Of a stretch of DNA of 64,000 nucleotides, positions 4,821 through 63,190 are shown one piece after another. Below the pieces are notes generated by a model. The model worked only from the letters and a program-made list of their open reading frames with translations, ran no database searches and had not been told where the DNA came from. The stretch comes from Eledone cirrhosa (taxonomy: Eukaryota). The position numbers were made by a program, and so were the translations under genes. The first letter of the stretch is position 1, and each line of letters starts with the position of its first letter. The stretch covers positions 405,542,001 through 405,606,000 of the forward strand of contig OZ024740.1 of NCBI GenBank assembly GCA_964016885.1. The letters run 5' to 3'.

Positions 4821-5900
4821 TCTCCCTGAACCTTTGAATCATCTGAAATCTGAGTCTTGCTTTTCTTTCTTTATGTTTCTGCATTGCTCTTTCTTGCCTG
4901 TTATGTGAAAAATGACAGGCTATAAGTTGGTGTTGATTCTTCTTGTATTAACACTGCTGTATTGTTTTAATGCACTAGCAAGGTTATTCGGGACTTGGTT
5001 ATGCAACCAGATCATTCTTCAATGTGTAGCCTCCATACTAATGGCAGTTAGTAGTGTTCATGGTTGAAAGCACATCATACACTGATCTCATCAGAACACA
5101 ATATTCTCTGCAATATGTTCTACAAAACTGTGTCTTTTGCTTAGTTGTTTCCCATGCAGCTCATGCACCTTAGCAACCTAACCCCACTGTATTTCTAACA
5201 TGCCCTCCCCCTACAATCTTTCAATCCCTCTGGCCACAATATTCTGCCTACTCTCATTATTTTGATAGGATTCCTTTTTTGTTGAACTGCTAAGTTATGG
5301 GACATAAATGCAGACACAAAGATAAATACAAGTTTAAACAGACACACACATACATACACATTTATATTTATATAAGATGGGCTTCTGTAGTTTCCATCTA
5401 GCAAATACCTCTCACAAGTCATTGGTCAACTCAGGGTTATATTAGAAGACACTTGCTCAAGGCTACAGCACAGCAGAACTAAATCCAGAGCCACATGGTG
5501 ATGAAGTGAACACTGTAACCACACAGCCATGCTTGCGCTTATGTATCCCCTACCACCCTCACCCCCCAAAAATTAATGATAACAAATATCATAACATCCA
5601 TAACTTTTTACTGTTGCTACTTTTTGCAACTAACACTGAAGAACATTTTTACCAGCAAACCCAATGTTTTGATTTATTCAAATTTCATCTCTCAGATTAA
5701 ATGACGCCATATAAAACCTTAATGTACTGGTGTCATTACCATCCTTTCCTCTACTTTCCCATACAACCAGATCTACCCTTCTTGACACATTCCCCGTTAT
5801 TTCTCATTACTTAATTTTGTTCTTATCTTTCTTTTTCATATCTATGTAATATCACTATTCAGTTTCTTAATATACTTAGAAGTGTCTAGGATACTAATTC

Positions 5901-5978
5901 ATCACCCACTGATGAGCTTGAATTGGTAATTCTATTCACAATTAACATTGCGAAACAACACCAAGTTGTCTGGGTGAT
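5901..5978 (+). ncRNA. Type I hammerhead ribozyme, canonical core
   Basis: Stem I ATCACCCA/TGGGTGAT; CTGATGA 5909-5915; stem II closed by G5916-C5951 and C5917-G5950, with inner AATTG/CAATT; GAAA 5952-5955; stem III ACAAC/GTTGT with loop ACCAA; GUC cleavage after C5970. Confidence 0.85.
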
Positions 5979-6233
5979 TGGTAGTTACCACAATTCCGAT
6001 TCGTATTTATTTTCTTGATTTTTTCTTAAATTGAGACAAGCAAACCCTATTGTCTATAGTTAGTATTCTTTTCACCTTAGCGAATCTGGTCCCTTACGAT
6101 TTGAACACTTATATGTATATGTCTGTGTTCGTTTTTCTTTTATATTCTATTATAATATACGGCTCGGGAATATCTCTTTCTTAGAGCTATTTTGTTGTAA
6201 GAGACTATTTTGAGTTCCTAACTCAATATATAC

Positions 6234-6294
<61 letters not shown>

Positions 6295-6296
<2 letters not shown>

Positions 6297-6490
6297 GAAA
6301 AGAGTCAGGACCCCGACGGCTGAGCTCTGGCCGTTTCAACAGCTAGATCCAAACTTGGATTTAGCTGTCGAAACGGCCGGAGCTCAGCTGTCGGGATTCT
6401 GACTCTTTTCCTATTACCCACTCTACTACCCTAAGTATTGAGTACTCTGGTGCGTTATGGTCCACCTGGTATCCTACCACACCCTCTTTG
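6295..6490. repeat. Palindromic PLE-like terminal module containing the 3' half of an HHR, embedded in (TA)n
   Basis: Imperfect inverted repeat 6295-6412; each arm has GAAACGGC..GC(T/C)GTC (HHR stem III). Related pieces at ~20092-20137 and ~27797-27883. Confidence 0.7.
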
Positions 6491-7390: not shown

Positions 7391-7482
7391 CAAAAGGGAT
7401 ATTCAATTTGTTGGTAATTCAACAAATATAAATGTTTATAACTGATTCAAAGCACTCGACAGATTTTCTGGAGTATAATATT

Positions 7483-7791
7483 CAATGATATTAAATAAAT
7501 GGAAACTATATTTATAAAACCATATTTATTTTATTATATATATATTTCAAGGGTACCAAAACTTTGGTATGCTCTCATCAGATAAAATACAAAGTTTGTT
7601 TTATAAATATTGACATAACCAGGAAGAAGAACTTGAACCGTTAAGTCTTCTTCCTGGATATGTCAATATTTATAAAACAAACTTTGTATGTTATCTGATG
7701 AGAGCGTACCAAAGTTTTGGTACCCTTGAAATATATATAAAAGAATAACTATGATTTTATAAATATAGTTTCCATTTATTTAATATCATTG
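7483..7791. repeat. ~310-bp imperfect palindrome carrying two divergent hammerhead motifs
   Basis: caatgatattaaataaatggaaac... (7483) mirrors ...gtttccatttatttaatatcattg (7791); centre near 7637. Confidence 0.9.
7527..7589 (-). ncRNA. Minimal type I hammerhead ribozyme (PLE type)
   Basis: Minus strand reads TATTTTAT-CTGATGA-GAGCATACCA aagttt TGGTACCCTT-GAAA-TATATATA-TA-ATAAAATA. Stem I is 8 bp; stem III is palindromic (AT)n. A mirror copy on + at ~7690-7745 has a weaker stem I. Confidence 0.75.
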
Positions 7792-7809
7792 TATACAATA
7801 TATCACCAC

Positions 7810-8350: not shown

Positions 8351-8470
8351 AAAATTGTCCTGTTTTTGACAATGAAAGATCCTCTAAACCCTCTGTCTGG
8401 CAGTTTTTAAAACAGTTGGGTATATATACATATACATATATATATATTATTTATATTTATATATTTATTA

Positions 8471-11400
8471 TTGAACAAAACACAAGCTGAACGGCTAAAA
8501 CACACAATAACAGTTAATATGAAAAGAACAACATACACAAAAGTCAACGCACTCTACAGACAAAAACGCATCAACGGTAAGGAAATCCGAAATCTCATCA
8601 CAGCAAACGAGAGAGATGACTTCATGAGCGTCATCCGACGCGAAACGAAATATGCTCAAAACGAATGCTGTAGGCATTTCAAGAAGAAATTAGAATGGAT
8701 GAATAAGAAAAAACTACAAGAAAGGAAAATCGAATATTCTCAAAAATACCCAGATAACATCGACAACATCCGTATGAGTGATGTAAAACTACCGGAAGAA
8801 TTTACCAATGACCACACAGTAAATATCTATGGGAACACTTTAATCAGTGAACAAGAACAACAAATCCTAAAGTTACCACCAAAATTTGCCATCTACAAAA
8901 AGATTAACCCTATGGAATGCAAAACGGGGCTGGAAAAGTGTTTCACAAAAATACGTTGGAATGCAAAGGTAAACAACAACAACAATAATAACGGTAGTAG
9001 TAATATAAACAATAACTCTGGGTATAGAAATAACAGCCATAACCATAACAATGGCAGGAAAGTGAGAAATAGTGATAATGGTAATAATACTAGCGATAGA
9101 CAGAACAACAACAACCACAATAATAATAATAATAGAAACGTTAACCACAGACACAGCAACAGTGACCACAGTAGTAATAACGGTAACAATACGAACAACA
9201 ACAACAACAATAACCACAGTGGTAATAATGGAAATAGTACATGTAGCAACATCAACAAAAACAAGAAACATAATAATAGTAACAACCACAATGGTAGAAA
9301 TAGCAGTAACAACAACAACAATAACGGTGAAGTAAACAACAATACATCTAGCAATCATAACAATAATAATATTAATGCTAATGATAGAAACAACAACAAC
9401 CACCATGATAACAATAATAGCAACACACACAACTATGACGATAGAAATAACGACAACCCCTTAGAGAAACTATTTTTCAACCCAGCTGACAAAACATATA
9501 AGATGGGTAATATCTATCCTACGAGGTTACCCTTTAATAAAAGAGTTTGCATACCACAGCAAATAGATGACGAGACGGAGGCACAGTTCACCATAGCTAG
9601 AAATAAGATTAGACAAGTAGTAGACAGGTACACTATGAGACAGAGCAGACCAGAGGCCCAACAACTTGGGATAAAACCTGTAGAAGGCTTGGTTAGCCTC
9701 AAGCAGCGCACAAGGGATGGTGAGGTAGTGTGCCTACCCACAGATAAGTCTGGTAGGATGTCAATAGATAGCATGCCGAACTACATCGAGGCAATGCAAC
9801 CCCACATCACCAACACGAGCGAAGTTGCACAACTAACACACGATGGGAGAGAAAAAATCCTCAACGCTCACATGATGATGTGGACTGACATCCTAAAGCC
9901 AAGCAGACGCACTGCCAACAACTTCCAGGCGTCTAACAATGGCATACCACCCTTGTATGGGCTCCGCAAAGACCACAAGACAGTCGACGACCCGACAACA
10001 GGACCACCAACAAGACCCGTATGCGGAGCTAATATAGCTAGCAACTACAGGATCTCCTACTTCCTCTCAATGGTTATACGCCCCATAATCAAGATGTCCC
10101 CAGATGTATGTGAAAGTACAGAGGACCTCCTCAGCAGAATCAGTGAGTGCAACAAAAACAGGAGCCTATCCAACTGCATAATAGGCAGCATGGATGTGGT
10201 GTCACTGTACCCATCCATTAACATTGATTTTGCTGTGAAAAGATGTGTGGAGATGATCATTGAGAGTGAGGTGGAGTTCTGCGACGTCGACACAGACGAA
10301 CTGGGCCTCCTACTTAGACTTACCTACGACACTGACTACCTAGACAGCCATGACCTTAGATGTTTCTGCCCTAGTAGACCTATAAGAGGTAGACCCCCCA
10401 CCATAACCTCAATGGCTAAAAAGACTCCCATAGGAAGGTGGATTGGGTGGACCAAAGCTATACGGACCCCCCAAAACACTGATCAGGTAAGAAAAATGGT
10501 CGCACATGCAATAGGGGCTAGTATCAAAACTACCCTAAAGGGCCACATATTTAAGTTCAATGAGAAAATCTACACCCAAAATGAGGGAGCAGCCATCGGC
10601 GTCAGCATAGCTGGTGATGTTGCCAACCTTTTCATGGTATGGTGGGAAAGGAGACTTAAAGATCTCCTTAATGAAAGCTCCATAGACCTCATCATGTACT
10701 CTCGTTATGTAGACGATATCAATATAGTTATAAGAACACCCCCACTAGAGAGCACTAACAAGTTTGATTTAGAACGTAGCACGATGGAAAGCATCCAGCA
10801 GATAGCTAATTCCATACACCAGAGTATAACTGTAACTATAGATTTCCCTTCCAAACACCCTAACAATAGACTACCTGTATTAGACACAGAACTCTGGATT
10901 AACACTATAGACGAGAGAGCCCAAATTCTCCACTCACACTATGCTAAACCCATGGCCTCCAAATACCTGATACTCAAAAACTCAGCAATGTCCAGTAGTG
11001 CTAAGTTTAATATTCTGATCGCAGATTTGGTACGAGTGATGAAGAATGTGTCCAGCATGTGCGACCCAACAGAAATGGAAGGACACATCCAACACTTCAT
11101 CAACCGCATGCAGTTCTCTGGCTACAACCAAAGAGACAGAGTCAGAGTATACGAAGGAGCCATGGAAAAGTATAAGACCCTCATAGAACTGGACATGAAA
11201 GGAATTTGCCCACTATACAGGAGCAAATCATGGAATAGCTTAGATAGGGCTAGACATAAGATAGGGAAGGCCACATCATGGTACGACAACCAGAGATATC
11301 AGAGTGTCATGTTTGTGGACGCCACCCCTGGAGGGAAATTAGCTAACCAGTGTAGAAAGGCCCTGAGAAAGACCCACTTAAAAATAAAGGTGGTAGAAAA

Positions 11401-11863
11401 GCCAGGAACCACCATAAAATCCCTGATCAGCAAAACCTACCCTTTTAAGAAAACCCACTGTACCAATAGGAAATGTATCATATGTAAGGTGAACCCCCGG
11501 ATAAACTGTAAAACTAGAAACGTAGTCTATAGCATAAGATGTACAGAGGGTACTTGCAGAAACACGACAACAACATACATAGGTGAGACAGCTCGTAGCA
11601 TAGGTGAAAGGATAGACCAACACTGGGGGGAACTAAAAGGACGAAAAAACGGGTCAGTACTATACGAACATGCTAGACAACAACATGACGGTAACATAGA
11701 CAACATAGAAATTAGAATAATATCTAAACATAGGAATGACCCAGCAGATAGGCAAATCAGAGAGGCCAGTGAAATAGAAATTAGAAGACCAAAGCTAAAC
11801 AGAAAGAATGAGTGGAACAACAACAACACCCAAACAAACAACACTGACCTAAGAGAAGTATAA
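8471..11863 (+). CDS. Penelope-like element ORF: RT + Cys-rich linker + C-terminal GIY-YIG endonuclease (Neptune-like architecture)
   Basis: PTDKSG, PPLYGLRKDHK, RPV, SMDVVSLYPSI, YTQNEGAAIG, RYVDDI, LPVLD; linker CTNRKCIIC..C; NVVYSIRC...YIGETARSIGERIDQH...REASEI..RPKLN. No stops over 1130 codons; 5' end abuts a TA-rich tract and is probably truncated. Confidence 0.9.
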   Translation: MNKTQAERLKHTITVNMKRTTYTKVNALYRQKRINGKEIRNLITANERDDFMSVIRRETKYAQNECCRHFKKKLEWMNKKKLQERKIEYSQKYPDNIDNIRMSDVKLPEEFTNDHTVNIYGNTLISEQEQQILKLPPKFAIYKKINPMECKTGLEKCFTKIRWNAKVNNNNNNNGSSNINNNSGYRNNSHNHNNGRKVRNSDNGNNTSDRQNNNNHNNNNNRNVNHRHSNSDHSSNNGNNTNNNNNNNHSGNNGNSTCSNINKNKKHNNSNNHNGRNSSNNNNNNGEVNNNTSSNHNNNNINANDRNNNNHHDNNNSNTHNYDDRNNDNPLEKLFFNPADKTYKMGNIYPTRLPFNKRVCIPQQIDDETEAQFTIARNKIRQVVDRYTMRQSRPEAQQLGIKPVEGLVSLKQRTRDGEVVCLPTDKSGRMSIDSMPNYIEAMQPHITNTSEVAQLTHDGREKILNAHMMMWTDILKPSRRTANNFQASNNGIPPLYGLRKDHKTVDDPTTGPPTRPVCGANIASNYRISYFLSMVIRPIIKMSPDVCESTEDLLSRISECNKNRSLSNCIIGSMDVVSLYPSINIDFAVKRCVEMIIESEVEFCDVDTDELGLLLRLTYDTDYLDSHDLRCFCPSRPIRGRPPTITSMAKKTPIGRWIGWTKAIRTPQNTDQVRKMVAHAIGASIKTTLKGHIFKFNEKIYTQNEGAAIGVSIAGDVANLFMVWWERRLKDLLNESSIDLIMYSRYVDDINIVIRTPPLESTNKFDLERSTMESIQQIANSIHQSITVTIDFPSKHPNNRLPVLDTELWINTIDERAQILHSHYAKPMASKYLILKNSAMSSSAKFNILIADLVRVMKNVSSMCDPTEMEGHIQHFINRMQFSGYNQRDRVRVYEGAMEKYKTLIELDMKGICPLYRSKSWNSLDRARHKIGKATSWYDNQRYQSVMFVDATPGGKLANQCRKALRKTHLKIKVVEKPGTTIKSLISKTYPFKKTHCTNRKCIICKVNPRINCKTRNVVYSIRCTEGTCRNTTTTYIGETARSIGERIDQHWGELKGRKNGSVLYEHARQQHDGNIDNIEIRIISKHRNDPADRQIREASEIEIRRPKLNRKNEWNNNNTQTNNTDLREV

Positions 11864-12385
11864 ATAAATAAGTAAATTAAATTAAATAAAATAAGATAAA
11901 TAAATACATACACAAGCACATAAACACACACTAGTCACCCAGCAGACACAACACTATACACACTAGTCACACATCACACATAACACTATACACACACGCA
12001 AACGCATGCGCAAAGAAGACAAAATAAAATAAGATAAACAAACAAGCAAATAAATAAATAAATATATAGACAGACTGAACAAAAAAAATGGCGTAGACAT
12101 ACAACACAACAGGAGGAACAATGAATATAACACCACTGACGATGTTGCAGATGTGCAACGAAAGATTTATGTAAATTATGTAAACTATATATATATGTGT
12201 TTGTCTATATTGTATCTGTATTATTTTTGACCGCCGGTCAGTCAATGGCAACATTGAGGACCGAGTAAGTTAGATCGCAGATATATATATATAAAAGACA
12301 GCGAGAAGCGAAAACCAACCAAACAGTGAGTGTGTTCTGTTATTAATTCTGGCAATATTACGCAAATATGACCCTCCCCAAATAT

Positions 12386-17940: not shown

Positions 17941-18389
17941 GTGTGTGTGCATGTGTATATATATATGTGTGTGTGTATGCAAAAGCAAACAGAAATAAAA
18001 AAAGCAAATGACATAGTACAATGAAGAAATACATAATTAGTTTTATGCTTGATATAGTAGGAAAAGAGTCTTAACGTTTCATCAGAAGATAGAGTGAAAA
18101 ATGAAAGATGGCAGGGTGGAAACAGGAAAAAAAAATTCAGAGAAAAATATGAAGTCCATTCATGTCGCTGTCTCTTGGAAAACTGCTGATTCTGGCGTTT
18201 TGTGTATGATATACTTTTTTGAAAAGGTGGTGATTGAGTGTCTTTATCTGAAAGATTAAAAAAAAAACGTTTTGTATATAGAGCTGTGCACGCGCATGTA
18301 CATATACACGTGTGTATGTGTGTGCGTACAGATCTGTGAAGGTAAATATAAATATAAATATAAATATATATATATAGAAAACTCTACTC

Positions 18390-19600
18390 TTTACTAATGA
18401 AAGTATTTGGGTTAAAAAGTCAAGCCCTGAAAACTCTTTTGATGTTGCAATGGGTTCATATGACAGTGCGGATGTGTGTGGCTTAGTAGGATTATTCCTT
18501 CTCCACACCCTTAAAGAGAAATTTCCTTCCCATAATATCGGTTTATACCATGACGACGGATTGGCAGTTTCTCATACCACCAACGGCCATAACCTTGATA
18601 AATTCCGTAAAGATTTAATCAATACTTTTGCTAACCTAAACCTTAAAATTACTATAGATACGAACCTTACCAATGTTAACTTTCTTGACATTAATCTTGA
18701 TCTACTTACTGCCTCTTTTAAACCTTATCATAAACCTAACGAAAATCTAAGATATATACACAAAGAGTCTTGCCATCCCCCTATAGTTTTTAAAATCTTA
18801 TTCCCAATATTAGCCGTAGGATTTCTACCTTATCTTCGTCTCTAGACATTTTTAACAAAGCTGCCCCTTATTATAATAAAGCCCTTAATAACAGCGGCTT
18901 TACAGAACATATTAAATATTTACCTACTCCTCCCCCTAAAACTAATCACAATAATAAGAAAAGGAAAATGATTTGGTTTACACCCCTCTTCTCTCTAACT
19001 GTCAAAACTAATGTAGGAAGGAAATTCCTTGACCTCTTAGACAAATATTTTCAAACTAATCATAGCTATTATAAGATAATTAATAGAAATGTAGTTAAAA
19101 TCAGTTACTCTTGCTGCCCATCAATGGAGTCTAAAATCACCAATTCTAATCGTACGAGAATAAATCCAGGATGCAGTTGCAGGAAGCCGGATGAATGCCC
19201 ATTACAGGGCAAATGTAATACCAAATCCATTGTATATGAGGCTAAAGTGACACCTTTGATTAACAACCAGCCAGCCAGGAGTGAACGATATGTTGGCATG
19301 ACTCAGGACAGGTTTTATGCACATGTCGCTTCTTTTAAACACTCTGATAAAAGAACAGCAACGGCTCTCGCAAATAATGTGTGGGAATTCAAAGATAAAA
19401 ACATCCCGTACTCTATCGATTGGTCTATTTTAGACCATTCGAGGGAATATCAAAGGGGCACAAAGAATTGTTCTTTGTGTACCACTGAAACAAATTTAGA
19501 ATTCTACAAAACTTGAAAGCACTTCAACTTGCCTGAACTCCAAGACCGAGATCTTCAGATGTTGTTCTCACCTGAAATCTCATCTGCTCTGAAACTGGAT
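18390..19600 (+). mobile_element. Second PLE family, disrupted (RT C-terminal part + GIY-YIG)
   Basis: MGSYDSADVCGLVG, GLYHDDGL, VNFLDI, IWFTP, CSCR..ECPLQGKC, SIVYEAKV...YVGMT, CSLC. Confidence 0.8.
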
Positions 19601-29430: not shown

Positions 29431-30089
29431 GAATAAAATATGACACCGTGTAGAGGGGACACTTCAGTCCTAGTTCTAATAGAGGGGACACTTATGTCCT
29501 AGAATAAAATATGACACCGTGTAGAGGGGACACTTCAGTCCTAGTTCTAATAGACAAACCACTTATGTCCTAGTTCTAATAGACAAACCACTTATGTCCT
29601 AGAATAAAATATGACACCGTGTAGAGGGGACACTTCAGTCCTAGTTCTAATAGACAAACCACTTATGTCCTAGTTCTAATAGACAAACCACTTATGTCCT
29701 AGAATAAAATATGACACCGTGTAGAGGGGACACTTCAGTCCTAGTTCTAATAGAGGGGACACTTCAGTCCTAGTTCTAATAGAGGGGACACTTCAGTCCT
29801 AGTTCTAATAGACAAACCCCTTATGTCCTAGAATAAAATATGACACCGTGTAGAGGGGACACTTCAGTCCTAGTTCTAATAGAGGGGACACTTCAGTCCT
29901 AGTTCTAATAGACAAACCCCTTATGTCCTAGAATAAAATATGACACCGTGTAGAGGGGACACTTCAGTCCTAGTTCTAATAGAGGGGACACTTCAGTCCT
30001 AGTTCTAATAGAGGGGACACTTCAGTCCTAGTTCTAGACAAACCACTTATGTCCTAGTTCTAATAGACAAACCACTTATGTCCTAGAAT
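29431..30089. repeat. Compound minisatellite of 29- and 42-bp modules
   Basis: Units gtcctagttctaatagaggggacacttca, gtcctagttctaatagacaaaccacttat and gtcctagaataaaatatgacaccgtgtagaggggacacttca in mixed order. Confidence 0.95.
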
Positions 30090-52974: not shown

Positions 52975-53489
52975 TCATTTCTTGGTTACTATTTGTGAAA
53001 TCAGCTCAATTAATTTCTTACTTTTCAATATTTTCAAATGATCTTCATGTGGAATAACATAATGGTGAACAGATTGTTTTTGTTGTTGTGACCATCTAAG
53101 ACAGCCAAGTAAACTTACTAAATTTACCGTACCATCTCCTGGTCCAGTTACTATCTTTGGTGCACTATTAGGATATTTTTCATCATAATGGTAAGATGCA
53201 GGTGTAGGTACATCAATTCCATGTATACAATGAATTTCCACTCCAGGAGGTCGCATGTCTTTCACAAGACCCTCAGTGTCTTTACGCATTTCATAACCAT
53301 TTGTAAAATTCAAATCTTTAAACAACTGCTGGTAATCTTTAACAGTATAATTGCGGTCAGGATGAGAAACAAGTATTTCATCTGATTTCCAGAAAGTATC
53401 GTATGGCATAAGCCAAGCTGTTGAAGATGCAGTTCTCTGGTATTTCCGAATAACATTTTCATCCAGTACAACAATTCCAAGATTATCTC
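52975..53489 (-). CDS. PLA2G15: Group XV phospholipase A2 / LCAT-like lipase, last coding exon
   Basis: Acceptor ttcatAG at 53490-53491; phase-1 G|GA GAT gives GDNLG; PPGVEIHCIHG..VPTP; GDGTVN (catalytic Asp); DHLKIL (His); TGA at 52975-52977. Confidence 0.9.
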
Positions 53490-53577
53490 CTATGAAGCAA
53501 AAGACAATATTTTTATGTGTTATTTGACAAAATGTGTACGAGAAAGAAAAAACAACACTGTAAATTATCATCTTGTA

Positions 53578-54030
53578 ATAATTGTTTCTACTTTTGGCAC
53601 AAGGCCAGCAATTATCCCAGTGTATTACTGGTACTTTATTTAATCGACCCCGTAAGGATGAAAGGCAAAGTTAACCTCGGTGGGATTTGAACTCAGATCA
53701 TAAAGGGGCGTAACTCTATGCTGCAAAGCATGGCGTCCGACACTCTACCGATGCTGCCAATCCACCACCCATTCATCTTGTAATAATTGTTTCTACTTTT
53801 GGCACAAGGCCAGCAATTATCCCAGAGTATTATCTAATTTAGGCACAAGGCCAGCAAATTTGGAGGAAGAGCAAAATTGATTAAATAAATCCCAGTACTT
53901 AACTGGTACTTTATTTAATCAGCCCAGAAAGATGAAAGGCAAAGTTGTTCTCAGTGGGATTTTGAACTTAGAATATAGAGTCGTTCTAATTACTGCAAAG
54001 CATTTTGTCAAATGCTTTACCCATACTGCC
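53578..54030 (-). mobile_element. Stacked intronic SINE A copies
   Basis: Full copy at 53578-53770, partial at 53783-53830, older copy to ~54030. Confidence 0.75.
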
Positions 54031-60082: not shown

Positions 60083-60494
60083 ATATATATATATACACAA
60101 ATTAATAATTAATGTAGTTTAATAAAGTTCCTGGTGTCATCTAAATCAGGTTAATTGATGCTGATAGACAAATATTGCAATCCATTAATCATTTTGGACG
60201 TAAACCGTTGATGATGATGATGATGACATATACTTGAGTATTTTGTAATAAAACTTGATAGCATAATTGTTCAACAGTATGTAATCATTTGTAATTTATA
60301 CTCATTCATTACCATATTTTAATGAAATACACTAATTAGCTGTTTCGATTAATTTTCAAAATAAGCAAAAATTTAGATGAATTCAATAAAATAACTGTAA
60401 CAAATAATATTTAAATGAAACAAACAAACAAAAAGGGGAAGAAGAAAAATAAAAAAGACAAGAAATAAAAGAAAGGGAGAGGGAGGGACAGATT

Positions 60495-61531
60495 CACTAC
60501 CACAGACTGAGCAGTGGGGTAAACTACCAGAGCACCCATCACTACCCCAGACTGAGCAGTGGGGTAAACTACCAGAGCACCCATCACTACCCCAGACTGA
60601 GCAGTGGGGTAAACTACCAGAGCACCCATCACTACCCCAGACTGAGCAGTGGGGTAAACTACCAGAGCACCCATCACTACCCCAGACTGAGCAGTGGGGT
60701 AAACTACCAGCGCACCCATCACTACCCCAGACTGAGCAGTGGGGTAAACTACCAGCGCACCCATCACTACCCCAGACTGAGCAGTGGGGTAAACTACCAG
60801 CGCACCCATCACTACCACAGACTGAGCAGTGGGGTAAACTACCAGAGCACCCATCACTACCACAGACTGAGCAGTGGGGTAAACTACCAGAGCACCCATC
60901 ACTACCACAGACTGAGCAGTGGGGTAAACTACCAGCGCACCCATCACTACCACAGACTGAGCAGTGGGGTAAACTACCAGCGCACCCATCACTACCCCAG
61001 ACTGAGCAGTGGGGTAAACTACCAGAGCACCCATCACTACCACAGACTGAGCAGTGGGGGTAAACTACCAGAGCACCCATCACTACCACAGACTGAGCAG
61101 TGGGGTAAACTACCAGCGCACCCATCACTACCACAGACTGAGCAGTGGGGTAAACTACCAGCGCACCCATCACTACCACAGACTGAGCAGTGGGGTAAAC
61201 TACCAGCGCACCCATCACTACCACAGACTGAGCAGTGGGGTAAACTACCAGCGCACCCATCACTACCATAGACTGAGCAGTGGGGTAAACTACCAGAGCA
61301 CCCATCACTACCACAGACTGAGCAGTGGGGTAAACTACCAGCGCACCCATCACTACCACAGACTGAGCAGTGGGGTAAACTACCAGCGCACCCATCACTA
61401 CCACAGACTGAGCAGTGGGGTAAACTACCAGAGCACCCATCACTACCCCAGACTGAGCAGTGGGGTAAACTACCAGAGCACCCATCACTACCCCAGACTG
61501 AGCAGTGGGGTAAACTACCAGAGCACCCATC
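60495..61531. repeat. 45-bp minisatellite, about 23 near-identical units
   Basis: Unit cactacc(a/c)cagactgagcagtggggtaaactaccag(a/c)gcacccat. Confidence 0.97.
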
Positions 61532-62784
61532 AATATGCACCATGAAGAATTTTTTCTGCCTTTCAAACCCTCGTGTAATATATTTCAGAAATATGAAGCC
61601 TTGTTTCCCAATCACAATATGTTTGTATAGTCAATAACTCAATGTTCAAGAATTTTGGGGTTTAAAAGATTTCCAAATTGTTGCACATTGATTTTGGAGG
61701 CTCAGAACTACCCGCAAAAGTGGGAATTTCCATTTTGAGCCATTTTCAGGAGATGCAAAAAGATTCTTACATCAGTTTAAAATATTTTGTCTATTTTTCT
61801 CAACTCACCTCCAAGTGCACTTTCAGAATATGTAGTTTTATATGGTTTCAACTTTGTGACAAGCAGTTATCATGGTTCAAACATCTTTTTAAAATATGCA
61901 TTTTTGCACTTTTTCTGCTTTTAACCACCTTGATACACTGAAATTCAGGCCTTTGGATAACTGAATTCAAGTGTTCTGTCAAGTTTCCAAGTGATACTGC
62001 ATTATTAGGAAGATAGCATGTTCAACAATTGTTGCTATTCAGTAACAGTCACCTAAATTTTGAGGTTTTTCAAAAATAACCACCAAGATCTGGATTTTTC
62101 AAATTTTCAGTTAACATTTTCTTTAAAAAGGCCAGCTTAAAGTAATTAGTGTTTAGTGTGGGGTGACTTTAGATAGTGGAGATTAAGGAAATCAAGTTCC
62201 AAAGGTATGTGATAAAAGCTACTTGGAGTACTAGGCCTTTAAAAATTAAATAAATTCAATATTTTCAAAATTTTGGAAATTGTCCAAATATTTAAATCCT
62301 CATAGAATCTGATTGGTAAGCGATATGGAGGAAATATTTTCAGGGATTATTTCTTTCGTAGATAACAATAAATTGTGAAAATTTGAAGAAAATCTGAAGA
62401 CCTCCGGGACAGAACCCCGTTGAATTTCACTGGAATGGCCCAGTAGGGAACTAGCCTGCACTAAGTCAGCATGATAGCAGATGCAGGCTGAACTCGTCAA
62501 CAGCCTCACATTTAAAAATGATAGGCAATGTCTTTCATTCAAAATATGGTAACAAAAGGATTAATTCAGAACTACTAGCAGGTCAAGTGACCAAGCAGAT
62601 ACTTCTCAGTTATGAGTTCCATCTCAGAGCTGAATCAGCAGACCTATCATCAAAAGCATTCTGTTCATAAACATCCCATCTTTTTGTATATTAGGGACTA
62701 TTACATTGTCCTATATGATGTTCTATCTTTTAAGATAGTATAAGCGGGATTTGAGGGCAATTTAATTTATTTTCCTTGAGGCCA

Positions 62785-63190
62785 AGCCACCACAGAGGGG
62801 ACACCTGTTTGGCTCAAGACAAGGAGGTCAAGCAACCAGACAGAGGGCACCTGTTTGGCTCAAGACAAAGAGGTCAAGCAACCAGACAGAGGGCACCTGT
62901 TTGGCTCAAGACAAGGAGGTCAAGCAACCAGACAGAGGACATCTGTTTGGCTCAAGACAAGGAGGTCAAGCAACCAGACAGAGGGCACCTGTTTGGCTCA
63001 AGACAAGGAGGTCAAGCACCAGACAGAGGACATCTGTTTGGCTCAAGACAAGCAGGTCAAGCAACCAGACAGAGGACACCTGTTTGGCTCAAGACAAGGA
63101 GGTCAAGCAACCAGACAGAGGACGCCTGTTTGGCTCAAGACAAGGAAGTCAAGCAATCAGACAGAGGACACATGTTTGGCTCAAGACAAG
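62785..63190. repeat. 46-bp minisatellite, about 8-9 units
   Basis: Unit cacctgtttggctcaagacaaggaggtcaagcaaccagacagaggg. Confidence 0.95.

Follow-up and report, generated by a model that had tools for sequence, protein, structure and literature searches.

The stretch of DNA analysed here, 64,000 nt long and called the window below, contains a hammerhead ribozyme motif on its plus strand, at positions 5893-5985. Does this motif act by itself at this locus, or is it part of a mobile repeat, and which enzyme would then be responsible for its spread? A preliminary description of the sequence took it for an orphan, canonical type I ribozyme that is likely to cleave as a monomer. The analysis reported here leads to a different answer: the motif belongs to a 506-nt repeat which is probably a variant of the non-LTR retrozymes driven by Penelope-like elements (PLEs), copied by an enzyme of the Hydra clade of PLEs.

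The hammerhead motif and its predicted fold

The motif was delimited by pattern, fold and covariation and includes an extension of stem I. The core CUGAUGA (5909-5915, +), read directly from the sequence, follows the 5' strand of stem I (5901-5908), whose 8 bp with 5971-5978 have pair probabilities of 0.75-1.0 in a 93-nt construct; beyond a 4 x 3 internal loop, stem I is extended by another 4 bp (5893-5896/5982-5985). The segment 5952-5970 (+) comprises GAAA (5952-5955), a 4-bp stem III hairpin (5956-5959/5965-5968) with a non-palindromic 5-nt loop and a GUC triplet ending at C5970, after which cleavage is predicted. A strict type I pattern finds one match in the window and none in 150 block-shuffled windows. 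The preliminary description was thus right about the intact core, the 8-bp stem I that continues past an internal loop and the true stem III with its GUC site, and also in contrasting the latter with the palindromic minimal motifs of PLEs, of which the same window has examples.

It is stem II that departs from this description. What had been called a long stem II is irregular and extended (5916-5951, +): the 36-nt insert forms two contiguous pairs at the core (G5916-C5951 and C5917-G5950), as against 4 bp in older subfamilies, followed by a 1 x 2 loop, with a best closed fold of -0.7 kcal/mol and a stem II pair probability of 0.00. Nor can the term canonical be kept. The canonical metazoan type I hammerhead is defined by a helix II of 4 bp whose capping loop makes contact with loop 1 (PMC4209133), and no such helix is found here; in all subfamilies helix II is extended by an internal loop and a second helix, and in that of the window copy its proximal part has shrunk to 2 bp. 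The motif equally falls outside the minimal metazoan PLE hammerhead, in which helix III is short or absent and palindromic so that dimers are needed (PMC4209133), for its helix III is a 4-bp hairpin with a non-palindromic loop and measures 4-6 bp in relatives. Features of type I in the general sense are all present: a CUGANGA/GAAA/NUH core, a G10.1-C11.1 pair (found in 91 of 98 aligned copies), closed stems II and III and an open stem I.

ViennaRNA ignores the hammerhead core and its tertiary contacts, and the energies given here are therefore comparative only. In the folding of the window hammerhead, stem III has a pair probability of 0.15, and the fold of the whole region has a z of -1.59. 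In the stretch singled out by the preliminary description the catalytic fold is 5.7 kcal/mol less favourable than the ensemble, and in wider context 7-8 kcal/mol; these gaps are uncalibrated with respect to ribozymes of known activity, and a sister family, B, with a 4-bp stem II shows one of 5.5 kcal/mol. In the minimum free energy folds of longer constructs the core is occupied by a predicted rival hairpin of 6 bp (5899-5915, +; pairs 5899-5904/5910-5915) which would sequester it. All six pairs can form in 29 of 33 copies of the window's subfamily versus 18 of 60 other copies. A search of the hammerhead region against Rfam gave nothing at the gathering score, the only sub-threshold match being RAGATH-1-hammerhead (23.2 bits, E 0.22).

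Judged by sequence and covariation the motif is a genuine type I hammerhead, for which self-cleavage is predicted, and its true stem III hairpin appears to equip it for folding as a single copy. As stem II has only 2 bp in its subfamily, clear monomer cleavage of the window copy in vitro would be an even bet, and fast cleavage at 1 mM Mg2+ would be rather unlikely; the 2-bp stem II is likely to leave the ribozyme of this subfamily attenuated. It is known in this context that internal loops in helix I function only with matching loops in helix II (PMC6155905).

Among the closest published systems are the large-helix-III hammerheads of fungal and protist PLEs, such as that of Serpula lacrymans, which are likewise of type I with a large helix III, with helices I and II of unusual size and no recognisable tertiary motif; the S. 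lacrymans ribozyme cleaves as a monomer at 0.16 per min in 1 mM Mg2+ (PMC4209133). Those ribozymes, however, reside in endonuclease-less telomeric PLEs, whereas the present one sits in a non-autonomous animal repeat, the youngest subfamily of which has only 2 proximal bp left in stem II.

A 506-nt repeat unit

The genome in question is that of an animal, 3.0 Gb in size and rich in repeats. It contains 1818 first-look candidates for the hammerhead region; a 21-mer spanning the core has 153 exact matches there and another, 190 nt downstream, has 1079, while the reversed controls have none. The motif is consequently no orphan but one copy of a repeat, probably a PLE-dependent one. Its host is a non-coding unit of about 506 nt, present in more than 1000 copies that are circularly permuted, with tandem copies at a few loci. 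In the natural tandem unit at L015/L016, which measures 506 nt, q1 corresponds to window position 5860 and the predicted cut falls after q111; 18 natural units range from 491 to 536 nt. Six-frame translation of the unit yields no ORF, and its GC content is 0.33. The predicted circular fold has a z of -5.8 (-2.6 to -6.3 in eight natural units), and by this prediction the unit would form a highly self-paired circle, as expected of a retrozyme. Complete consecutive ribozyme units exist at few loci only (L015/L016 and L149) and are absent from the window copy and from most others. Among 100 listed of the 153 exact core matches there are two same-strand ribozyme pairs one unit apart and no trimer, and no long arrays typical of retrozymes were seen.

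The window copy (5853-6244, +) is single-armed, truncated at its 5' end and 0.77 unit long, its limits being those of the homology to other copies. It has one ribozyme and no inverted arm, lacks q385-499, and passes at the second of two fixed end sites (q384) into a (TA)28 target tract (6238-6293, +). Directly after end site 1 (q299, about 6159) comes a hairpin, CGGCTC..GAGCT (6160-6188, +). Positions 6076-6082 (+) are the 3' strand of a long-range helix, q216-222/q464-470, for which two subfamily-level compensatory changes are found and whose partner strand is missing here. The window copy is about 95-98 % identical to many dispersed copies; in itself it is ordinary, and it is likely to be a dead-end product. 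Directly after the (TA)n tract, at 6295-6412, lies a near-perfect palindrome of 118 nt (-104.8 kcal/mol) that belongs to a different dispersed repeat; similar copies occur in L303 and L269, and it has sub-threshold matches to miRNA precursors.

Selection on the fold and succession of subfamilies

The alignment comprises 98 of 115 distinct copies, 17 having been left out as broken by indels or truncated. Homologous copies do conserve the core: none of its 12 columns has an alternative letter in at least five of the 98 copies, compared with 18 of 50 stem columns and 21 of 34 loop columns, and all 12 positions are kept in 75 copies. Compensatory changes are found in stem I at columns 15/106 and 21/100 (U-A/A-U and A-U/G-C) and in stem III at columns 81/95 (G-C in 47 copies, G.U in 5 and A-U in 39), and are to be counted as three events rather than as 55 cells, the kinship of the sequences inflating the shuffle control. 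Proximal stem II has no compensatory change in the 98-copy alignment. Selection has therefore acted on the fold: no core change is recurrent, and three compensatory changes have taken place in stems I and III.

Stem II pairs 3 and 4 are paired in 56 of the 98 copies and unpaired in 41. Rooting on family B gives a ladder-like tree in which the window's subfamily appears as the most derived. Proximal stem II measures 2 bp in all 31 rule-passing copies of this subfamily (45 examined), as opposed to at least 4 bp in two older ones, namely in 16 of 18 copies of the first (59 examined) and in 7 of 7 copies of the second (24 examined).

Family B itself has 911 candidates, is 70-78 % alike outside the ribozyme and shares the same two ends (L020:2600-2700, L181-L210). 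Its ribozyme keeps the core, shows two further compensatory pairs in stem I and has a 6-bp stem III; several copies carry GGAA in place of GAAA. A further family, D (L274, L284, L287, L288, L290, L291 and L300), combines the same start hairpin with a type I hammerhead that shows a U3-A8 covariation in the core, 7 bp in stem I and a true stem III, the core of L273 being standard. A covariance model recovers family B (36-41 bits) and not family D.

The idea of a spliceosomal intron across the ribozyme was abandoned, since in the oldest subfamily the GTAAGT-like donor is not conserved. A gapped hammerhead pattern has no match in viral contigs; its one match in metagenome contigs is without stem III and cut site and looks like a chance hit in GC-rich DNA.

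Anatomy of the insertions

The first 100 entries in the list of 1079 downstream matches supplied 88 loci, and removal of three overlapping or twin loci left 85 with 153 arms. The 3' ends of 122 arms fall at two sites, q285-301 and q375-386, with 61 arms at each, and 112 of these arms are directly followed by (TA)3 or more. Both orientations occur in 55 of the 85 loci. The head-to-head blocks, 50 in number, join site 1 to site 2 in 32 cases and site 1 to itself in 2, one end being unassignable in the remaining 16. Arms mostly measure less than 1.6 units; 64 of the 153 cross the cut site, 42 cross the unit junction and 18 exceed 520 nt.

The 5' ends do not pile up at the cut site, since none of the 153 arms starts at q108-116; nor is there a pile-up (0 of 40) in a young sample that partly overlaps the earlier loci. 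Only one of 62 arms reaching q120 stops in q111-120, as compared with 10 of 76 arms in q131-140. Of the 153 arms, 12 stop at q225, a cluster in which alignment edge effects pool q223-225 and just downstream of which the sampling motif begins. Both clusters lie at the 3' edge of a helix, the conserved long-range helix in the case of q225 and the extended stem I in that of q131-140, as would be expected if the reverse transcriptase stalled there.

Partial tandems, an inverted truncated arm and a tail set by two start sites are the marks of PLE insertion (PMC8557442; PMC11167929), and the repeat presents the corresponding anatomy, with two fixed 3' ends, an inverted 5'-truncated arm, a partial tandem and a microsatellite target. 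Given that arms run across the cut site and are often longer than one unit, the template was not a cleaved linear monomer; it probably was either circular or a multimer left uncleaved.

A start hairpin shared with a Hydra-clade PLE

Within the unit, the CGGCTC..GAGCT hairpin lies 3' of both end sites. Its pattern has 1112 matches genome-wide versus 1 in the control, and other families are retrieved with it. One of the loci, L303, is an autonomous PLE with the order pLTR (containing a hammerhead core), site 1 and hairpin, 96 nt, site 2 and hairpin, and finally the start of an RT/GIY-YIG ORF that is frameshifted in the sampled copy; all 29 other sampled copies of this element end at the same two sites (20 and 9). 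The hammerhead of the L303 element has a near-palindromic stem III. The protein carries the motifs RWR (RWK-like), DKT, CxCX5C (linker), CxxC and CxH, and Pfam recognises its GIY-YIG domain weakly (E 0.005). By its motifs, its C-terminal GIY-YIG and its insertion into (TA)n it appears to have the features given for the Hydra clade in section 11 of PMC8557442.

Since the hairpin follows both ends in the repeat as well as in the PLE, a Hydra-clade PLE is the likely partner and, as far as sequence can tell, the likely source of the copying enzyme. Outside the hairpin the tails of the repeat and of L303 are not significantly alike, 48 of 1000 shuffles scoring equally high; the actual partner may thus belong to a different Hydra family, or the assignment may hold at the level of the clade only.

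The hairpin was found at none of 30 loci after the pLTR end of a Poseidon-like family and is absent from the one Neptune-like pLTR/ORF junction inspected. These two labels are assigned by motif rather than by tree. Among 87 free 5' ends there are two direct head-to-head junctions of a repeat arm with a 5'-truncated PLE ORF, Poseidon-like at L091:1381-3159 and, at L124:2953-4100, Hydra-like of a family other than that of L303. They count against the proposed partner; both may be nested insertions, or possibly chimeric two-armed ones. The Poseidon-like PLE of L091 was rejected as partner in view of the 30 loci without hairpin.

Neighbouring elements of the window

The preliminary description stated that no RT ORF is adjacent to the motif. 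This is literally true, but an open PLE ORF of 1150 aa, of another family, starts 2.2 kb downstream (8411-11863, +). It has an Asn-rich insert and a CX4CXXC linker, is presumably Neptune-like, is not recognised by Pfam and is followed by a pLTR up to 12392; a tandem copy in L305 is 99.5 % identical, with a frame of 1217 aa. This element was rejected as host, having its own pLTR, a different ribozyme-like motif at 12136 (core and stem II, no ordinary stem I) and no start hairpin. Three copies of the repeat (L038, L120 and L207) merely sit in the TA tract of pLTRs of the 8411 type.

Minimal hammerhead-like motifs of other families occur at 7581 (-) and 7695 (+), 20669 (-) and 21013 (+), and 55091 (+). 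The first four have a palindromic stem III, and the pair at 7480-7800 is a head-to-head insertion. A broken Hydra-like PLE ORF is situated at 18378-19516 (+), and minisatellites at 60494-61532 (45 bp), 62778-63190 (46 bp) and 29431-30089 (29/100/129 bp). An open frame at 52975-53670 (-) presumably resembles the final exon of a gene of the LCAT / group XV phospholipase A2 type. Elsewhere in the genome, L088 (153, 619 and 1085) and L120 (203 and 670) contain a tandem array, with a spacing of about 466 nt, of a short hammerhead with palindromic stem III; this is the classic retrozyme layout, in another family.

Mode of spread and alternative explanations

For a retrozyme copied by a Hydra-clade enzyme, the following route can be envisaged. 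Rare loci with two tandem ribozymes would be transcribed, and each ribozyme would cut as a monomer by means of its true stem III, releasing a unit-length RNA that would be ligated to a circle along the route of PMC7229834. A Hydra RT-endonuclease would then bind the two hairpins and cut (TA)n DNA. Priming from both target ends, at the q299 and q384 sites, would give each arm one end site, and copying would proceed round the circle until the enzyme stalls, often at the base of the conserved helices.

An uncleaved tandem transcript would explain the read-through as well as a circle does, and ribozyme cleavage is unnecessary for PLE insertion in vitro (PMC11167929). The repeat might then be a non-autonomous PLE that spreads via such transcripts without any circle, its ribozyme being protein-assisted or attenuated and only trimming read-through RNA. 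This would fit with the lack of arms of two or more full units in the loci inspected, with the lack of trimers among those 100 of the 153 exact core matches that were listed, and with the spread of the most derived subfamily, which has a weakened stem II and the core-sequestering hairpin. Save for seven arms scored at the q1 edge of the reference, however, no single fixed 5' end marks the start of a linear template, and the 42 arms across the unit junction also speak against it. A true stem III is moreover kept in families A, B and D, in contrast to the near-palindromic one of the autonomous element, which suggests selection for stand-alone cleavage. We therefore grant this explanation only a minor chance.

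Even less likely is that the copies are solo pLTR fragments left by an autonomous PLE of which a full-length copy lies outside the sample. PLE pLTRs do carry hammerheads and far outnumber full copies (PMC4209133), and inspection covered about 200 of more than 1000 loci. Yet every arm that extends upstream continues with the 3' part of this very 506-nt unit, and does so in each subfamily as well as in family B; no same-strand ribozyme pair lies 1-8 kb apart among 100 listed exact matches, and none of the 87 free 5' ends is contiguous with a PLE ORF on the same strand, all of which makes this origin improbable. Finally, a host-co-opted orphan acting at this locus, as the preliminary description implied, is hardly credible: the core is intact and stems I and III are perfect, but an intact core is expected from youth alone given that 75 of 98 copies keep all 12 positions, and the 95-98 % identity to many dispersed copies, the ordinary 5' truncation and the (TA)n end all argue against it.

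Returning to the Hydra-driven retrozyme, we tentatively suggest a more specific model, which we hold somewhat less apt to prove right than wrong. Ribozyme circles of about 500 nt (families A, B and D) would parasitise Hydra-clade PLEs by means of two copies of the start hairpin of the PLE enzyme; a dimeric RT would dock on both hairpins of one circle and prime from both ends of the cut (TA)n; and the activity of the ribozyme would have been lowered in the youngest subfamily so that the circle stays closed.

Comparison with retrozymes and PLEs

With the metazoan non-LTR retrozymes (PMC7229834; bioRxiv 10.64898/2026.07.22.740005) the repeat shares its non-coding nature, one type I hammerhead per unit, a low GC content (33 % here), a strong self-pairing by prediction and co-occurrence with PLEs, which have been proposed to mobilise them. 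It differs from them by a unit of 506 nt, the 150-450 nt reported being a descriptive rather than a mechanistic range, by arms of mostly less than 1.6 units instead of arrays, by a true stem III of 4-6 bp and an extended stem II, and by two fixed ends and a start hairpin held in common with a named PLE clade. In these sources the mobilisation mechanism of retrozymes is listed as unresolved, and only one of nine predicted Xenopus retrozyme dimers was cleaved (bioRxiv 10.64898/2026.07.22.740005).

Like PLEs, as known from the PAc mechanism (PMC11167929) and the Hydra clade (PMC8557442), the repeat has two internal RT start sites that define a tail, partial tandems, an inverted 5'-truncated arm, AT-rich or (TA)n targets and a hammerhead upstream of the starts. 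Unlike them, it has no ORF, its tail is 85 nt long (96 nt in the L303 Hydra element) as against the 30-40 bp reported, and each start site has, on its 3' side, one copy of a duplicated hairpin. The repeat appears to work in the manner of a non-LTR retrozyme and fits the anatomy of PLE-dependent insertion, lies outside the canonical and the minimal metazoan hammerhead definitions and exceeds the unit size reported for retrozymes. The literature searched, the main text of freely accessible papers, contains nothing on the 506-nt family or the shared start hairpin, and a Repbase or supplement entry may exist.

Implications

What gives the finding its weight is the signal shared with the partner, together with the stem II series, and not the window copy. 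If the more specific model is true, the hairpin would act in cis as a portable signal, matching each retrozyme to the PLE that mobilises it. For the enzyme that moves animal retrozymes and for the signal it recognises, both left open in PMC7229834 and bioRxiv 10.64898/2026.07.22.740005, the family offers a testable answer: one named clade of PLEs, together with two start sites marked by a short hairpin that both partners have in common. The succession of subfamilies from a 4-bp to a 2-bp stem II would in turn provide a natural test of whether cleavage helps or hinders PLE-driven spread.
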